From assembly GCA_964508365.1 (NCBI GenBank), contig CAZDTP010000022.1, positions 1 to 46,237 of the forward strand: DNA of 46,237 bases. Direction: 5' to 3'. The notes beneath the pieces were generated by a model. That model saw nothing but the letters and a program-made list of their open reading frames with translations, was not told where the DNA came from and did no database searches. Within the stretch, counting starts at the first letter, position 1. Each line of letters begins with the position of its first letter. Made by a program: the position numbers and the translations under genes. The DNA is from an uncultured archaeon (GTDB lineage Archaea; Asgardarchaeota; Lokiarchaeia; Sigyniarchaeales; SOKP01). Positions 10,088 to 16,650 of the stretch are shown here, piece by piece.

Positions 10088-10603
10088 TTATTCTTTTAAT
10101 TTTAAAGCCAATCTTACAAAAAGTTTCTGCAAATCAAGTTTGTAGCCAATAAGAGGAGTTAATCGGATATTAGTTGTTTTTTTATCTATCTCTAAAAAAC
10201 CTTCTTTTTCCAATATTTTTATATCATCTTTGACATCCTTTTTATTTCTTAATATCCTAATTTCCTGAATTGAGGTATATCCTGAATTTTTAAGGCAAGA
10301 AGTTAAAACACATAGTAAGGTCGCTGATAAACTCGGTCTGCCCTCAAAAGGATTAGCTGAAATTAATTCTGTTAGCTCAATATCATAATTTATAAACCAA
10401 TGTGAATTTAACGAGTTGAAGTTTATTTGAAGTCCCAATGGCTCGAGATATTTGGATAAACCCATTATTAGGTCTTGGAAGTAAACTGATTTATTCTTAT
10501 TCTTAACATTTAATGACTTCAAAATCTCTTTTTTAGTAGCTCCTATTTGATGGATGCTTTTCTTTCTACTTAACAGATACATTAAAATTGAAATTTCGTT
10601 CAT
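10088..10603 (-). CDS. KITE subunit (tandem winged helix; Nse1/Nse3-MAGE or ScpB-like)
   Basis: Last gene of the smc operon. Two WH-like halves: LMYLLSRK..ATKKEIL..FQDLIMGLSKYLEPLGLQI..HWFI resembles MAGE/Nse WH-A, and ATLLCVL..ILEKEGFL..IRLTP resembles WH-B. Confidence 0.65.
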   Translation of the reverse strand: MNEISILMYLLSRKKSIHQIGATKKEILKSLNVKNKNKSVYFQDLIMGLSKYLEPLGLQINFNSLNSHWFINYDIELTELISANPFEGRPSLSATLLCVLTSCLKNSGYTSIQEIRILRNKKDVKDDIKILEKEGFLEIDKKTTNIRLTPLIGYKLDLQKLFVRLALKLKE

Positions 10604-10616
10604 TTATTAGATAACC

Positions 10617-11270
10617 TCATATGTATAATGTATTGGTATTTTTTTCATATTTTATTTTGCCTAGCTGAAGCAAATGTAGCAAGTATACAAATTGTTCATA
10701 AATCTCTATTTGATCCAGTTCATTATCGAACACATCTTCAAAAAAACAAGGGAGTTTTTTGTTTATTTTTTCATAAAATGCACTAATTTTTTCAGTAAAT
10801 TTATACTTTGGAACCTCTAATAAAAATTGATCATTAGTTTTCTCTCTAATCAAGTGTTCAATGTTAAAATTTGTTATCCTTTCTTTAACATAACGATTAG
10901 AAGCGTAATCTAAAAATTTCATAGAAATTGGTTCGAAATGAAATATTTTTCTCCAACAACCGCGAAAAAGGTCAGATATTTGGTCCTCGCCAGGGTTAGT
11001 TTTCAAAAAATCTTCGAACTTTTTTTCTATATCTAATGAAGTTAGCAAATTCTTTAATTCTTCAAATTTTTGGTTGAGTAATTTGACTGCATTTTTATAG
11101 CTTTGCGAATAATTTTCGATGTTGGATATACTAATTGAGTCATTAATTTCGCTAAAAATAGGATTGAGTTGTAGATCTAGTAACTTAATCTTACCTGAGA
11201 GGACTTCTTCTTTTATAAGTGCGATCCTTTTATTAATTTTTTCTGATAAATCTAATTCCTCCACTTTCAC
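10617..11270 (-). CDS. Kleisin (ScpA/Nse4-like)
   Basis: Start overlaps the smc stop by 4 nt. N-terminal helical region (SGKIKLLDLQL) and a C-terminal WH, FVYLLHLLQLGKIKY, matching the ScpA pattern F(L)ALLxLxxxGKI. Confidence 0.7.
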   Translation of the reverse strand: MKVEELDLSEKINKRIALIKEEVLSGKIKLLDLQLNPIFSEINDSISISNIENYSQSYKNAVKLLNQKFEELKNLLTSLDIEKKFEDFLKTNPGEDQISDLFRGCWRKIFHFEPISMKFLDYASNRYVKERITNFNIEHLIREKTNDQFLLEVPKYKFTEKISAFYEKINKKLPCFFEDVFDNELDQIEIYEQFVYLLHLLQLGKIKYEKNTNTLYI

Positions 11271-14200
11271 CCTTCCCTAACGATTTTAGGATTAAAAATA
11301 GTCGACACTTCCTTTTTTCCTACTCTAGCAACTCCGATTAACTTGTCTGCAAGTAAATAAAGTGTGTTTGATGATTTTGGTAAGAATAATAGCATTTGAA
11401 TAGAATTATTCTCAAGAGTTGATTTTATCATCTTATATGAAGCTTCTGAATTCCTATCATCTAAAAACATCCCAGCTTCGTCAAGCATTACAATAGGAGA
11501 ACTTCTAATCTCTAAAAGTGATAAAATTAAACCAATAGATATCATGGATATCTGACCACCGCTTAAAGCTTTGCATGATTTTAACTGATCCTTAGAAATC
11601 GCAGCTTTAATATCTATTCCTAAATCTTCGAATTTCCCTATTAACTCAAGCGTACAATAGGCCTTAATATCTGTAGACTTAAATTTATCATTAATTCTCG
11701 TATTCAGTTTCTTTAATACTAAATGAAATTTGTTGAAATAAGTGTCCTCCATTTTATTTTCAGTCTTTAATGCTGCTTCTATATCTATTTCTATTTCTCT
11801 CTGATTTTTTGTAATTTCTTTTAAACCCTTTAGAATTTGCTCTTTTTCAACCAAGATACTATCATCAATATCTAAGTATTTCAAGAGATCTTTGTCTATG
11901 TTCAATATATCTCGATTTATGTCTTGAATAGGTCGAAGCGTTAGTACCTCTTCTTCAATTAATGGACCAATTTCAGATATAACACGCTTTAAGTCATCTT
12001 CTTTGATGCCTAATTCGCTTGAAATTGAAGTCTGCTTAAAAATCTCTTGTTCTAATCTTAAATTTAGTTGAATGTAAGATTTATCAAGTTCCTTTTTTTC
12101 AATTAGGGTTATATTTTTTTTTTCTTTAAACTCTGAGATGACATTGTTAACATTTAATAATTCTTCTTCAATGTTCTCTAATTCTCTATAAATTCCAAAT
12201 GCTTTTTTATCTGACTTTTGGAACGCATCTTTTTTGAAATTATAGTTATCTTCGGATGACTTTAAATCGCTGGTATAATAATTTAATTTCTCACTGATCT
12301 CTTTTAGAGATTCTAGATTTTCACTAAGTTTTTCTTCCCATTTTTTTAATTCGTCGTTGTAATTATTTAGTTCGCTGGGAATTTCCTTGATTCTTTTGTT
12401 CCAATCGAAGAACTCTGGGTCTTTCTGAGATTCTAAATCGTTGAGTTTTCTGGACACTTCGCTTAGGTTGTCATTAAATTCTTTATTACGCTGCTCTAAG
12501 GAGTAAATCAGCTTATATTGATGATTCTTCTTGGTAGTTAACCTTTCTTTCTGTTTAAAATTGAATAGAAGATCGGTAAATGATTCTTTTTTTCTGAGAA
12601 TATCATTTTGGTGTTTATCAAGTTTAGTTAGTTCCACTTTTAATTCTAAAACTTTGTTGTTTAACGATTTGATTTCTTTCTCCAAGAAATTTGATTGTTC
12701 TTTTTGTGTTCCTGTACTCAACAGTCCTTTTAACCTTTTTACGTGAGGACTTTCATAGGCATATCTATAAGATATAATTTGTTTTCCCTGTAATGTCACA
12801 CATTTTCCCTTAAAACCACTAGTTCTGTAAATTTCTTTAGCAGACTGGTAGTCATCAACAACAATACAGTTTTTGATTATTGAATAAATAACCTTTTGAA
12901 TATCAGAGTCTCCGTTTATAATTTCAATCAATTCGACTAAATATCCAATTACTCCATTCGCAGCAATTTTTGGATATTTAGTAATGTTGCCTTTTTTTGG
13001 AATGTAAACGTTACAATAAGCGTTATATTTTTTTTTTAACCTCTCCATTAAGTTTAGTGTATCCCAATCACTCGCAATAAAGCTATTTAGTAATCTTTCT
13101 CCAAAAACAGATTCAATTGCGTAGCTTAATTTATCATCATATTTTAAGTATTCAATTATAGGTCCCTTAACCCGATCGAATAAATCTCTTTTTTTAATTT
13201 CTTCTTTCAGAATATTTATATTAGGTGAGAGTACAATTTTTCGTTCTCTTAACGCAGTTTGTATTTGTTTAAATTCTCTTATTTTTTTTGACTTATCATA
13301 TTCTATTTTTTCAATTTCAGCTCCAAAATTTAATGTTTCCACTGTTACTCTTTTAAGATTTATATCTAACTGTTTTAATAGATCTTCCGTAGGATTTTCT
13401 AAAAACCATTTGTTATTAGATAATTTGTGGTCAATATCCTTCAAACTCTGAAATATATCGTTTATATCTTTTTTAATGTCTTCAATGTTATTTTCGTTTT
13501 CTTGGATGGATCTTAGAATAGTCTCCCTCCGTTGCGATAATTTATTGTACTTTTCTAAAAAAAGATCATTCTCTTTAATTTTCCTTGTTAAATCACTTTG
13601 CTCCTTGATAATACTATCAATTTTGGTTTTTATAAAATCTGTCTTTGTTTTTATTGCATCGGCTTTCTCATCAACATTCTTTTTCTGATTTCCAATATTT
13701 TTTAAGATTTTTTTCTTTTCTGCAAGTTTTTCTGCTAATTTATCCAACTCACTTTTAGCAGTAATTTTCTCTTTTTGCCATTTACTAATCTCGTTTATAA
13801 ATTCCTGTTTCTTATACCCTAATACACCTAAATTTTCCGAAAAATTGCTAATTTTAGTATCAACATCAAGAATAATCTTTTCTTTTTCATTGATTAAATT
13901 TTGACACTTGTCAACTTCTTTTCTTATAATATCAATTTGGATTTCGGTGTCACTGAGATTGGCCTTTAATTCTTCAATTTCTTTTTGTAATTCGCCTTTA
14001 TTTGCCCAAAGTAACTCGTCGGTGTATTTCTTTTTAATATCTAATAATTTATTTTTCTCCCTCAATCGTTTTAATTTTGGCGTCAACAGATCCAGGTTAA
14101 TATTTAGAGCATTTTTTCTTGAAACTAAAGATTGAAATTCCGTGTTTAATGCCAATACACCTTTTTTTTGTTGGAGGATTTCATCTCTAAGGCCTTTTAA

Positions 14201-14770
14201 TCCAATACCCTCTTCTAGAAATGAACAAAGCTCTATTGGTTTTAAATTCTTTATAGCATCAATTTTTCCTTGGCTTACGAACGCAAACTGGTTATCAGGA
14301 TTAATATCTAGCTTAGAGACTAATTTTTGAACTTCAGTTACATGAGCTTTCTTGAATTCTTTGTCCTTGTCAAATTGTATTTCAAAAAAAGGAGATTTCC
14401 CTTTTACTACAGTTCTTCGAATTTTAATAATCTCGGTATGATGTTGAATATGAAGCTCTACCATAGCGTGTGCTTGGCTGTTTCTTATAAAATCAGACCA
14501 TTTCTTATATCTCTCATCTCTTTCGTTACTTCCTAATGCAAATTTAATAGCTTGAAAAATTGAAGTCTTACCGCTCCAATTCGGGCCAATTATCAAAACA
14601 AAACGAGGAATTTCCTTAATTTTTTTGGTTGAAAAATCAACTTCATCCCGTTGGAAAGATAAAAAATTCTCTAAAATAACCTTCCGTATATAGGTACCAC
14701 TCTTGTTTAATGATTTATTTGTGGTGTCAATCGTTTTTTTTTTACTAGAAATAGCCGTCTTTTCTCTCAC
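11267..14770 (-). CDS. smc: SMC protein of the SMC5/6-related type
   Basis: Walker A GPNWSGKT, Q-loop FVSQG, long coiled coils, hinge (GPIIEYL..AIESVFG..LNSFIA), signature LSGGQ, Walker B MLDEA. The end motif QMLLFLPK resembles the SMC5/6 Q(F/Y)xxxTP(K/Q) motif rather than the ITH/ISH of condensin-type SMC. Confidence 0.9.
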   Translation of the reverse strand: MREKTAISSKKKTIDTTNKSLNKSGTYIRKVILENFLSFQRDEVDFSTKKIKEIPRFVLIIGPNWSGKTSIFQAIKFALGSNERDERYKKWSDFIRNSQAHAMVELHIQHHTEIIKIRRTVVKGKSPFFEIQFDKDKEFKKAHVTEVQKLVSKLDINPDNQFAFVSQGKIDAIKNLKPIELCSFLEEGIGLKGLRDEILQQKKGVLALNTEFQSLVSRKNALNINLDLLTPKLKRLREKNKLLDIKKKYTDELLWANKGELQKEIEELKANLSDTEIQIDIIRKEVDKCQNLINEKEKIILDVDTKISNFSENLGVLGYKKQEFINEISKWQKEKITAKSELDKLAEKLAEKKKILKNIGNQKKNVDEKADAIKTKTDFIKTKIDSIIKEQSDLTRKIKENDLFLEKYNKLSQRRETILRSIQENENNIEDIKKDINDIFQSLKDIDHKLSNNKWFLENPTEDLLKQLDINLKRVTVETLNFGAEIEKIEYDKSKKIREFKQIQTALRERKIVLSPNINILKEEIKKRDLFDRVKGPIIEYLKYDDKLSYAIESVFGERLLNSFIASDWDTLNLMERLKKKYNAYCNVYIPKKGNITKYPKIAANGVIGYLVELIEIINGDSDIQKVIYSIIKNCIVVDDYQSAKEIYRTSGFKGKCVTLQGKQIISYRYAYESPHVKRLKGLLSTGTQKEQSNFLEKEIKSLNNKVLELKVELTKLDKHQNDILRKKESFTDLLFNFKQKERLTTKKNHQYKLIYSLEQRNKEFNDNLSEVSRKLNDLESQKDPEFFDWNKRIKEIPSELNNYNDELKKWEEKLSENLESLKEISEKLNYYTSDLKSSEDNYNFKKDAFQKSDKKAFGIYRELENIEEELLNVNNVISEFKEKKNITLIEKKELDKSYIQLNLRLEQEIFKQTSISSELGIKEDDLKRVISEIGPLIEEEVLTLRPIQDINRDILNIDKDLLKYLDIDDSILVEKEQILKGLKEITKNQREIEIDIEAALKTENKMEDTYFNKFHLVLKKLNTRINDKFKSTDIKAYCTLELIGKFEDLGIDIKAAISKDQLKSCKALSGGQISMISIGLILSLLEIRSSPIVMLDEAGMFLDDRNSEASYKMIKSTLENNSIQMLLFLPKSSNTLYLLADKLIGVARVGKKEVSTIFNPKIVREG

Positions 14771-14778
14771 CTACTTAC

Positions 14779-16056
14779 TTAATACTCTCCAAACGCTCTC
14801 TTTAAATTATCGATACGTTTCTTCGCTTTTTCTAAATTAATTTGAGCCATATTAGGACTATCGTTAAAAATAAACGCATATTTAGCTAACAATTTTCTCT
14901 CAATTTCTTCTAAATGCTCGTTCTTGTTTAATTTGTCAATTATCAGCACAAGCTCGGTATAATTTTTAGATGCCGCGTTTTCGTACAATTGATTGAGCAT
15001 AAAATCTGTAAACCTTTCCTCTTTAATTTCACTGCTTAAGTTTTGAGTGTAAATGTTTTTACTTTCTATATTTCTCCCGTTCATGGAATTTTTTTTAGAA
15101 AATTCATTATTTTTGTGAAAATTTGAATCTAAGTTTTCGATATTTCGTTCTGTCTCTGAGGTAGTAGGAATATACTCTCCTGATTCTATCAAATTAATTA
15201 AACCGTCTGTAATTTCATTACTCGACTCGTTTAGTTCAGAATTGAGAAAATGTTTAAATATCCCAATTTTTAGTAACTGAATTAGGTCTTTTGTCTCCCA
15301 ATTTGCTGTATAATCAACTAACGTCTTAATATCGAACACTATTTTCGGATTTTTCTCAGAAAAAGCTCTAAATATCGTCTCCCTTTCTATCTTATCCAAA
15401 ATTGGCACTTTGATAAAGAGATCAAATACTTCAAAAATCAGTTGCGAACTTTTTTTGATTTCTTTCATAGTATTATTAATCCAGATTAAAACTAATCCAT
15501 CTTTTATAAAACTTGTTCTATTCTTATAAGATACCATAAAAAGTTCTAAAATATTCTTCCCATTTAAGTTAATACTGGAAAATTTCTGTTGGTCTATTAT
15601 CAATAATCCTTTAATTTTAGATTGTCCAGGATCGTGTTCATTTGATCGAGATGCTTCGTTGTTTTTTGTTTCATTTTCTCTATTTTTCAGCGTCCGTTCT
15701 ATTATACTCTCTAAAATGTCAATAAAATTAGATATAAACTCGTCAGGAGCCTTTACAATTTCTTCATGATTCAGTTCGAAAAAATTTAAATAATAATTTT
15801 TAGATATTAATTTTAAATAATCTACGATATCAGTTCCAGGATTTACCTTTATTAATATTGCACCTTTAAGGCGAATGAATTTAATGTAACTCTGAATAAC
15901 TGATTCCTCATCATTAGTTAAGATTATTTTCAAATAATTTATTATATCGTTATATTTTTGACGATAAAAAATCTCCTCCCTATCAATATCCATTTCATTT
16001 GGCGTGATTAACCGATAAAATTTAGAAAATTTCAAATCGTCTGTTTTACCTTCCAT
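14779..16056 (-). CDS. Degenerate (pseudo-ATPase) classic-clade AAA+ protein, first gene of the smc operon
   Basis: KGAILIKVNPGTDIV aligns to KGxLLxGPPGTGKT, LLIIDQ to Walker B, FDLFIKVPILDKIERETIF to FDxxIxxPLPDxxxRxxIL, and TANWETKDL to TxGFSGADL. The catalytic GK and the Walker B Glu are absent. 8 nt from the smc start. Confidence 0.7.
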   Translation of the reverse strand: MEGKTDDLKFSKFYRLITPNEMDIDREEIFYRQKYNDIINYLKIILTNDEESVIQSYIKFIRLKGAILIKVNPGTDIVDYLKLISKNYYLNFFELNHEEIVKAPDEFISNFIDILESIIERTLKNRENETKNNEASRSNEHDPGQSKIKGLLIIDQQKFSSINLNGKNILELFMVSYKNRTSFIKDGLVLIWINNTMKEIKKSSQLIFEVFDLFIKVPILDKIERETIFRAFSEKNPKIVFDIKTLVDYTANWETKDLIQLLKIGIFKHFLNSELNESSNEITDGLINLIESGEYIPTTSETERNIENLDSNFHKNNEFSKKNSMNGRNIESKNIYTQNLSSEIKEERFTDFMLNQLYENAASKNYTELVLIIDKLNKNEHLEEIERKLLAKYAFIFNDSPNMAQINLEKAKKRIDNLKRAFGEY

Positions 16057-16401
16057 TCAGAATGCCATCAATTTTTTATTTATAATTTTTAAACATTATT
16101 TTCAAGATAATTATCACATATATATTTAGCTATAGGTTATCCCCCGACAATATTATATACATTTAAATGTCATATATCAATTGTTTTAATTCATAATTAA
16201 AAAATTATGTGAAGATGTTTAATATAAATAAAGAGAGTCGATAATTTAATAATACTATAAATGGATAAAAAAAAAAGAAGGTTTTTTATATCTAAATTGC
16301 TTTACATCAAATTTTAATGATAGTACAAAAAGGAATGATCCTTTAAGTGAATTACCATAAACTTTATAAGTAATTTGCTTAATGTATAGAAGATTTTCGT
16401 T

Positions 16402-16650
16402 TTAACCTATTTTTTCAGGCATGCAGAAATATCCTTTCTCTAATTCGTACTTTGAAAATAACCCACATCCAAAACAACTACAACCTTTGTTTTGAATTTA
16501 TGAAACTGGTTTTTTAGATTTTCCTCGTGAACAAAATAACGCATGTGGCTCAAACTTGTTGAGTTTATTTGGTTTGAAAGAAGGGCAAGGATCACAGAAT
16601 TTTATATACTCTGCCATTGACTCTTCAGTATCTAAGACTAGTAGTGGCAT
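16402..16650 (-). pseudogene. DUF2769-like Cys-rich small protein interrupted by an in-frame TAA
   Basis: ATG 16650 gives MPLLVLDTEES..FCDPCPSF..LFCSRGKS..PVS, then TAA at 16498-16500, then the same frame continues IQNKGCSCFGCGLFSKYELEKGYFCMPEKIG to TAA at 16402. Both halves fit the CxxCPS/LFCxxGKS/GCxCxxC/YxC pattern. Confidence 0.65.

Follow-up and report, generated by a model that had tools for sequence, protein, structure and literature searches.

A divergent SMC operon begins with an AAA-like gene

We analyzed a 46,237-nucleotide stretch of DNA from an uncultured Asgard archaeon (Lokiarchaeia; Sigyniarchaeales; contig CAZDTP010000022.1 of GenBank assembly GCA_964508365.1, positions 1 to 46,237), referred to below as the window, and within it an operon that encodes a divergent SMC protein followed by kleisin-like and kite-like proteins. 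The first gene of this operon, at positions 14779 to 16056, had been read in a first-pass annotation as a AAA+ protein that has lost its catalytic residues. It is a real and intact open reading frame of 425 codons on the minus strand; the plus strand over the same interval is full of stops. The gene is single copy in its own genome. The operon is organized as follows.

14779..16056, minus strand: pseudo-AAA+ gene, first gene of the operon; 425 amino acids plus stop, a single open reading frame with no break
14771..14778, minus strand: 8-nt spacer from the AAA stop codon to the smc GTG, the GTG at 14770 being the first possible start
11267..14770, minus strand: smc, divergent SMC of 1167 amino acids with a GTG start (PF02463, 5.5e-30; PF06470, 2.9e-9)
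10617..11270, minus strand: kleisin-like gene of 217 amino acids, overlapping smc by 4 nt; weak profile match
10088..10603, minus strand: kite-like tandem winged-helix gene of 171 amino acids, 13 nt after the kleisin-like gene

The SMC protein contains intact-looking head motifs (GPNWSGKT, LSGGQ and MLDEAG) and a hinge, and it scores 166 bits on the TIGR02169 model against a cut-off of 729. The kleisin-like protein has no Pfam match; a profile built from seven orthologues gave weak matches to the C-terminal winged-helix domain of ScpA (Pyrococcus furiosus 4i99_C, E 0.006; 5xns_C, E 0.04), and the match falls at the expected position. The kite-like protein is not recognized by the ScpB Pfam model, and its profile retrieved generic winged helix-turn-helix proteins from the PDB without reaching Nse1 or Nse3. 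The orthologue at the same operon position in Asgard family f28 (families are given by f numbers throughout) does match ScpB PF04079, at 50 bits.

The AAA gene stops 8 nt before the smc start, as annotated initially; the smc ribosome-binding site that had been placed in this gap is not clearly right. The clearest Shine-Dalgarno-like sequence, GGAGAG at 14785-14790, is located within the last codons of the AAA gene, and the gap together with the start codon offers only a partial AGGTG. Initiation at the GTG, the only in-frame start available, gives the SMC a 26-residue Lys/Thr-rich N-terminal extension (14693-14770, minus strand) ahead of the conserved YI(R/K)K(I/V)ILENF of the head; the orthologue in genome G077 has an ATG two codons before this motif.

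The pseudo-AAA+ gene is under purifying selection. Relative to five orthologues sharing 84–96% amino-acid identity, the ratio of nonsynonymous to synonymous substitution rates is 0.15–0.29, which together with the breadth of conservation rules out a pseudogene. A large protein collection yielded 567 homologues, of which all the named ones are Asgard, with the exception of one mislabelled bin, and 86 representative clusters were also found. The mislabelled bin includes contig DATKTW010000069.1 (locus L086), filed under 'Candidatus Nanopelagicaceae bacterium'; it encodes the same operon with an orthologue of 96% identity and is probably an Asgard contig. When genome contigs were scanned with this one protein, the matches were all to metagenome-assembled genomes of closely related Loki type.

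The AAA fold is retained

Plain Pfam, NCBIfam and PDB sequence searches with the pseudo-AAA+ protein returned no AAA match, PF00004 being absent even at E-values up to 1, and ten distant homologues likewise gave no Pfam match. Relationship to AAA+ proteins emerged from profile and structural comparisons. An alignment of 33 homologues, compared by hhalign with the Cdc48, PAN and Vps4 AAA modules of the same genome, matched over residues 62-268 with a probability of 97.5% (E 6.5e-12). The AlphaFold2 model has a mean predicted local distance difference test score (pLDDT) of 78.9; with it, Foldseek retrieved p97 D2, FtsH, PAN/Rpt and SPATA5 (E 3e-9, prob 1.0), and VIA-align superimposed model residues 6-310 with a Z of 16.6 and a root-mean-square deviation of 4.1 Å over 257 aligned residues. 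Fold matches of the AAA module include SPATA5L1, Vps4, p97 D2 and PAN (Z 16.6). Several orthologues pass the PF00004 threshold (Thor, 40 bits; f19, 76; f28, 75; f16, 42) and the family therefore shares common descent with AAA+ ATPases. Sequence comparison and modelling thus confirm the predicted product as a classic-clade AAA module, composed of an alpha/beta P-loop subdomain and a helical lid. The segments and motif remnants of the protein are located as follows.

15409..16056, minus strand: N-terminal linker and alpha/beta (large) AAA subdomain, residues 1-216 (model, hhalign and alignment)
15823..15846, minus strand: Walker A remnant VNPGTDIV, residues 71-78, lacking Lys and Ser/Thr in hhalign register with GPPGTGKT
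15589..15606, minus strand: Walker B remnant LLIIDQ, residues 151-156, with Asp kept and Gln in place of the catalytic Glu
15157..15408, minus strand: AAA lid and post-lid helix, residues 217-300 (alignment, hhalign and model)
15019..15156, minus strand: disordered linker, residues 301-346, with pLDDT below 50 at 302-346 and the lowest information content
14782..15018, minus strand: C-terminal helical bundle, residues 347-425, pLDDT 90.2 when folded alone

Within the large subdomain, a Loki-specific insertion at about residues 121-148 is modelled with low confidence. The lid preserves the signatures FD..I.hP.p...R..I and T.gW...D and is followed by a short, conserved post-lid helix; in the homologue alignment R225 and W253 are invariant and P297 is near-invariant. 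Compared with classic-clade AAA+ proteins (Cdc48/p97/VAT, SPATA5/Afg2, PAN/Rpt, Vps4 and FtsH; PF00004 plus AAA_lid_3), the large subdomain and four-helix lid are the same and occur in the same order, and the linker helix preceding Walker A is common to both. The protein differs from them in lacking an N-terminal substrate domain and in adding a C-terminal bundle for which no fold match was recognized. Each of the three structural claims of the first-pass annotation thus survives closer inspection: a Cdc48/PAN/Vps4-type scaffold is found by hhalign, Foldseek and VIA-align; the hhalign register places VNPGTDIV, without GK, at Walker A and IIDQ, without Glu, at Walker B; and an extra helical domain occupies approximately residues 347-425.

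Catalytic motifs are lost to differing extents across the family

The Walker A lysine is absent from all 194 Loki-type sequences, which without exception read xxxG[TS]DIx. Thor-type copies read G..GTDF, and copies from f2, f8, f9 and f26 also lack the lysine; loss of the motif is therefore conserved across Asgard orthologues of these types. The Walker B acidic pair is D155-Q156 in this copy and varies within the family (DQ, NQ, ER, EK, SR and others). In the second region of homology, RpGRFD is aligned to --EVFD, such that both arginines are lost and D212 alone is conserved. The KFYG of pore loop 1 is aligned to E-F-I-S, which lacks the glycine; these residues are modelled as a helix and are unconserved in Thor-type copies. 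An Asn, N195, occupies the sensor-1 Asn position in this copy, a position that other family members do not conserve. With Walker A, Walker B, pore-loop and arginine-finger residues lost, canonical ATP binding, hydrolysis, trans-activation and substrate threading are all predicted to be disabled.

The retention of G74 and T75 in the P-loop, of Walker B Asp155 and of the sensor-1 Asn might be taken to mean that the protein is still an enzyme, binding nucleotide or hydrolyzing ATP through non-canonical residues, but the protein has lost the Walker A Lys and Ser/Thr, the catalytic Glu and both arginine fingers, it carries an Asp in the P-loop, and the Walker B and sensor-1 positions are unconserved across the family, so that we regard residual catalysis as highly improbable.

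Walker A is kept in the SMC-linked AAA genes of three families: f19 (GRSGTGKT), f16 (Candidatus Borrarchaeum; GLPGMGKT) and f28 (GPSGNGKT). The Walker B glutamate is absent from each of these proteins, which read DN, DD and EN, respectively. A Helarchaeales protein annotated as an AAA family ATPase (P0181) combines Walker A GPLGTGKS and an absent Walker B glutamate with the conserved C-terminal bundle. The bundle is also present in the f19 protein, whose closest solved structures are Cdc48/p97 and SPATA5L1 (E 2e-38). Because PGTD is common to Loki- and Thor-type copies, a single origin of the dead P-loop is suggested. In a quick maximum-likelihood tree, provisional given its quick search and long branches, the Walker-A-positive forms fall between ordinary AAA modules on one side and three clades of dead proteins on the other (Loki with f2; Thor with f26; f8 with f9), a topology that would fit one loss of Walker A. 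Since some lineages keep Walker A yet lack the Walker B glutamate, the sequences further suggest that the ancestor may have been an ATP-binding switch that later became constitutive.

Conservation is highest in the C-terminal bundle

The bundle is the most conserved region of the protein, with 2.57 bits per column as compared to 1.2–2.1 elsewhere; conserved residues include Q356, Y358, A361, L382, F395, A411 and K412. A Pfam search of 21 members assigned it to no family. Structure searches gave a best Foldseek E-value of 1.8 and a best VIA Z of 5.3, and the ESM Atlas contained no look-alike; small helical bundles are hard to match, and we make no claim of a new fold. A reading of the bundle as MIT-like, which the sequence pattern had raised, found no support. 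In the AAA proteins of f28 (L072:3912-5594) and f16 (L075:4890-6143) a domain of winged-helix appearance replaces the helical bundle.

The AAA-like gene is linked to one type of SMC in 11 Asgard families

In all 53 loci examined, which represent 11 Asgard families, an AAA-family gene is located directly upstream of this type of SMC gene, and the adjacency is thus not unique to the genome of the window. In loci of the window's own family, the orthologue is followed directly by this SMC type in 29 of 29 cases, as far as the flanks extend. The order AAA, SMC, (kleisin), kite was found in all 20 of a first set of more distant loci (f1, f2, f7, which are Thorarchaeota, f8, f9 and f26) and in four more from f19, f16 and f28, for a total of 24/24 distant loci in 10 other families. 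In 42 of the 53 loci, no more than 25 nt separate the AAA and SMC genes, and in 11 of those 42 the genes overlap (-1, -4, -11 or -38 nt). The f19, f16 and f28 genes that retain Walker A remain SMC-linked, with gaps of -4 to +1 nt; in these three families, whose context was read, no unlinked orthologue with an intact Walker A was encountered. An apparent AAA-SMC fusion in G077, a 1563-residue open frame, was discarded on finding that a TGA stop separates both genes.

Co-occurrence was evaluated in 201 Asgard genomes that are at least 85% complete, using profiles for the kite and for the C-terminal domain of the AAA-like protein, with all comparisons made within Asgard. The C-domain profile was chosen because a whole-protein profile cross-matches every Cdc48 at about 100 bits. 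It gave exactly one match in each of 110 of the 201 genomes (f1, 46/51; f2, 4/4; f7, 47/55; f8, 3/3; f9, 1/1; f19, 6/6; f26, 1/1; f29, 1/1) and none among the genomes from the remaining 17 sampled families. The kite profile has a nearly identical distribution: both are present in 107 genomes, both are absent from 81, and 13 are discordant. In at least four of the discordant genomes the gene that was found lies at or near a contig end or its partner is expected beyond one, and in three (f16 and f28) an AAA gene with the different C-terminal type stands beside the SMC gene. Genomes lacking both include G141, which is 98% complete and belongs to the family of the window, and four sampled Thor genomes of genus g36.

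In f19, the gene immediately preceding the AAA-SMC operon (L074:2610-3350) gives a weak match to a peptidase M48 motif that exceeds the threshold of the motif, and a RING finger match of 22.6 bits, short of the 27.3-bit threshold. The RING match is only a hint; it is of note because eukaryotic SMC5/6 carries RING-type subunits.

The operon is the second, non-ScpB SMC operon of the genome

Contig C34 of the same genome encodes another SMC with a higher TIGR02169 score, followed downstream by ScpB (PF04079, 112 bits), which is the only PF04079 match in the genome. The operon in the window was initially called simply the SMC operon; it is one, and it is not the canonical one but the second, non-ScpB SMC operon of its genome. 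Two SMC operons with separate kleisins, one encoding a ScpB-type kite and the other a non-ScpB kite, have been described for TACK and Asgard archaea (van Hooff et al., bioRxiv 10.1101/2024.01.07.573240; Yoshinaga and Inagaki, PMC8665677), and the genome of the window shows this same arrangement. The non-ScpB operon has been named SMC5/6-related, and three subunits are described for it (bioRxiv 10.1101/2024.01.07.573240; PMC8665677); the Asgard operon examined here differs in having a constant fourth, AAA-derived gene. We use 'SMC5/6-related' as the literature's label: our comparisons did not confirm the affinity, as condensin, prokaryotic SMC and Smc5/6 score alike in PDB similarity. Neither study mentions an AAA gene (10.1101/2024.01.07.573240; PMC8665677), and a full-text literature search found no description of one in archaeal SMC operons. 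The original remark that a pseudo-AAA+ partner falls outside described SMC systems agrees with this search, which found no such description.

No AAA-family gene stands alongside the ScpB-type SMC operons of related genomes (G144 and one Thor genome); in the genome of the window, the region upstream of the ScpB-type operon is hidden by the contig end. Some Loki-class genomes contain a third SMC locus (G144:C10 8373-12543, L076; G226:C1 6177-10393, L077), in which an SMC of about 1200 amino acids is followed directly by a weaker ScpB-like protein (63–69 bits) with no kleisin-sized open reading frame between them. This third locus contains no AAA gene in G144 or G226, and it is absent from the genome of the window.

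The region upstream of the operon

About 600 nt of AT-rich non-coding DNA lie between the AAA gene and the next intact gene upstream, and this region includes one promoter candidate:

16072..16093, minus strand: TATA-like A/T-rich stretch, 16-37 nt 5' of the ATG, recognized from sequence only

This stretch is a possible archaeal promoter for the operon. Because the roughly 600 nt upstream contain no intact gene and include the TATA-like stretch, the AAA gene plausibly heads the transcription unit.

A small, conserved Cys-rich open reading frame is present on the same strand about 350–600 nt upstream of the AAA gene (16404-16650, minus strand). Its relatives are uninterrupted 82-residue DUF2769 proteins (PF10967, E 6e-12). 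The copy in the window contains an in-frame TAA in place of a Glu codon after residue 50 and a Cys to Tyr change, consistent with either a recent pseudogene or an assembly error.

A probable non-catalytic component of the second SMC complex

Tight translational coupling, conserved gene order, joint presence and loss, restriction to one of the up to three SMC loci of a genome and conservation of the bundle lead us to consider it probable that the AAA-like protein is a co-translated fourth component dedicated to the second (non-ScpB) SMC-kleisin-kite complex of Asgard archaea, acting as a non-catalytic pseudo-enzyme. According to this proposal, the AAA body would be tethered to the small conserved bundle by the flexible linker. 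The bundle may serve as a docking module, and the dead AAA body may offer other proteins a rigid binding platform through which the SMC ring is regulated or targeted, for example during loading, head engagement or turnover. We infer that the protein would bind the complex physically, contact a surface of the SMC and regulate it in one direction or the other; the role of scaffold, loader or regulator suggested in the first-pass annotation would be compatible with such an arrangement.

Several considerations weigh against a fourth component of this kind. The evidence for association with SMC consists of gene order, spacing and co-occurrence, and related genomes are not independent, so that the co-occurrence counts overstate support and are to be read as a pattern and not as a statistic. 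The bundle has no recognizable relatives, and its binding partner is therefore a guess. The different C-terminal domain of the f16 and f28 proteins means that one family with one role may be too simple a description, and the tree that orders Walker-A-positive and dead forms is provisional. Finally, a MoxR-like ATPase and a VWA protein adjoin the operon in Thor, f8 and f26, and the dead AAA protein may act through them instead of directly on SMC.

This last point underlies the alternative that the protein is an adaptor to an active remodeller, either the MoxR-like/VWA pair or a Cdc48/VAT hexamer, which it would recruit or co-assemble with in order to load, extract or recycle SMC rings; on its own it would then not regulate SMC. 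The genes beside the operon in Thor, f8 and f26 (L044:4212-7653, L046:4978-8290 and L048:10520-12217) encode a MoxR-like protein of about 570 amino acids (AAA_5/AAA_3) and a protein of about 560–600 amino acids, whose f8 copy has a weak, below-threshold VWA match. The f8 genes are co-directional and overlapping, and the genome of the window keeps a MoxR-like/VWA pair on contig C11 (32903-36351). There is precedent for inactive AAA proteins that assemble with active paralogues, and FtsHi chains are among the fold matches of the protein. However, the pair is unlinked to the operon in Loki-type genomes, the AAA+ clade of MoxR is a different one, and the dead protein has neither the arginine fingers nor the nucleotide site from which interfaces between AAA subunits are normally built. 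We view an adaptor function as unlikely.

A role in SMC-based DNA surveillance or defence, similar to Wadjet, Lamassu or SMC5/6 restriction and with the AAA-like protein as effector or sensor adaptor instead of a factor in chromosome maintenance, appears quite unlikely. The SMC head does weakly match the LmuB, PtuA and JetC models of PADLOC, and eukaryotic SMC5/6 is established to restrict episomal DNA. No nuclease or other effector domain is present, however; PADLOC gave no match for the kleisin or the kite and none that is meaningful for the AAA protein, and it found neither JetA/B/D or LmuA/C partners nor a nuclease effector that would indicate membership in Wadjet or Lamassu. The single-copy, near-universal occurrence of the gene in Loki and Thor families fits a housekeeping function better than a patchy defence island.

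That the gene is a passenger, co-transcribed with smc and serving some unrelated function, is very unlikely in our estimation: its C-terminal domain has no known partner and its link to SMC is known here from gene context, but adjacency in 53/53 loci across deep divergence, the translational coupling, the joint loss of AAA and kite, and the absence of an AAA gene from other SMC operons all argue for a function connected to this complex.

Comparison with known pseudo-AAA+ proteins and SMC partners

AAA+ folds that bind no nucleotide serve as static subunits or cofactors in several machines, among them clamp-loader delta-prime, LAP1/LULL1 of the torsins and FtsHi of the Ycf2 motor. The AAA-like protein resembles these in maintaining, under selection, an AAA+ fold without canonical nucleotide chemistry, and as a proposed part of a larger machine. 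It differs in its partner: delta-prime, LAP1/LULL1 and FtsHi pair with active AAA+ subunits, whereas the conserved partner of the dead protein is an ABC-type SMC ATPase and not an AAA+ ring. LAP1/LULL1 moreover donate an arginine finger, of which the dead protein has none. With Nse5/Nse6, JetD and MksG it would share the status of an additional subunit that is encoded alongside an SMC-kleisin-kite core or binds to it, and possibly a role in loading or ATPase control. This likeness is one of functional analogy only; Nse5/6 form helical solenoids, JetD/MksG belong to the Toprim-type nucleases, and neither group is related to the dead AAA protein in sequence or fold.

A more specific version of the fourth-component proposal, which we offer tentatively and rate at somewhat less than an even chance, is that the dead AAA+ protein is a stoichiometric subunit of an SMC5/6-like ring, derived from an ATP-binding Cdc48-type partner that is extant in some Asgard lineages, and that it acts as a loader or gatekeeper.

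In published descriptions, SMC complexes consist of SMC, a kleisin and either kite or hawk subunits, joined in some cases by a nuclease or loader, and to our knowledge no AAA+-derived subunit is among these partners. An AAA+-derived SMC subunit would thus be new relative to the partners described in the searchable literature, and the gene encoding it is constant in the second SMC operon of several Asgard classes. The operon concerned is the one proposed to be related to eukaryotic SMC5/6. The natural series from ATP-binding forms that keep Walker A to fully dead ones could reveal how the complex is loaded, gated or removed, and because the proteins are small and co-expression is feasible, the regulation of archaeal SMC rings and their relation to eukaryotic complexes become directly testable. 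If the more specific proposal of a stoichiometric loader or gatekeeper is correct, an SMC complex of the prokaryotes most closely related to eukaryotes would have a Cdc48-family module as its ancestral, built-in regulator.

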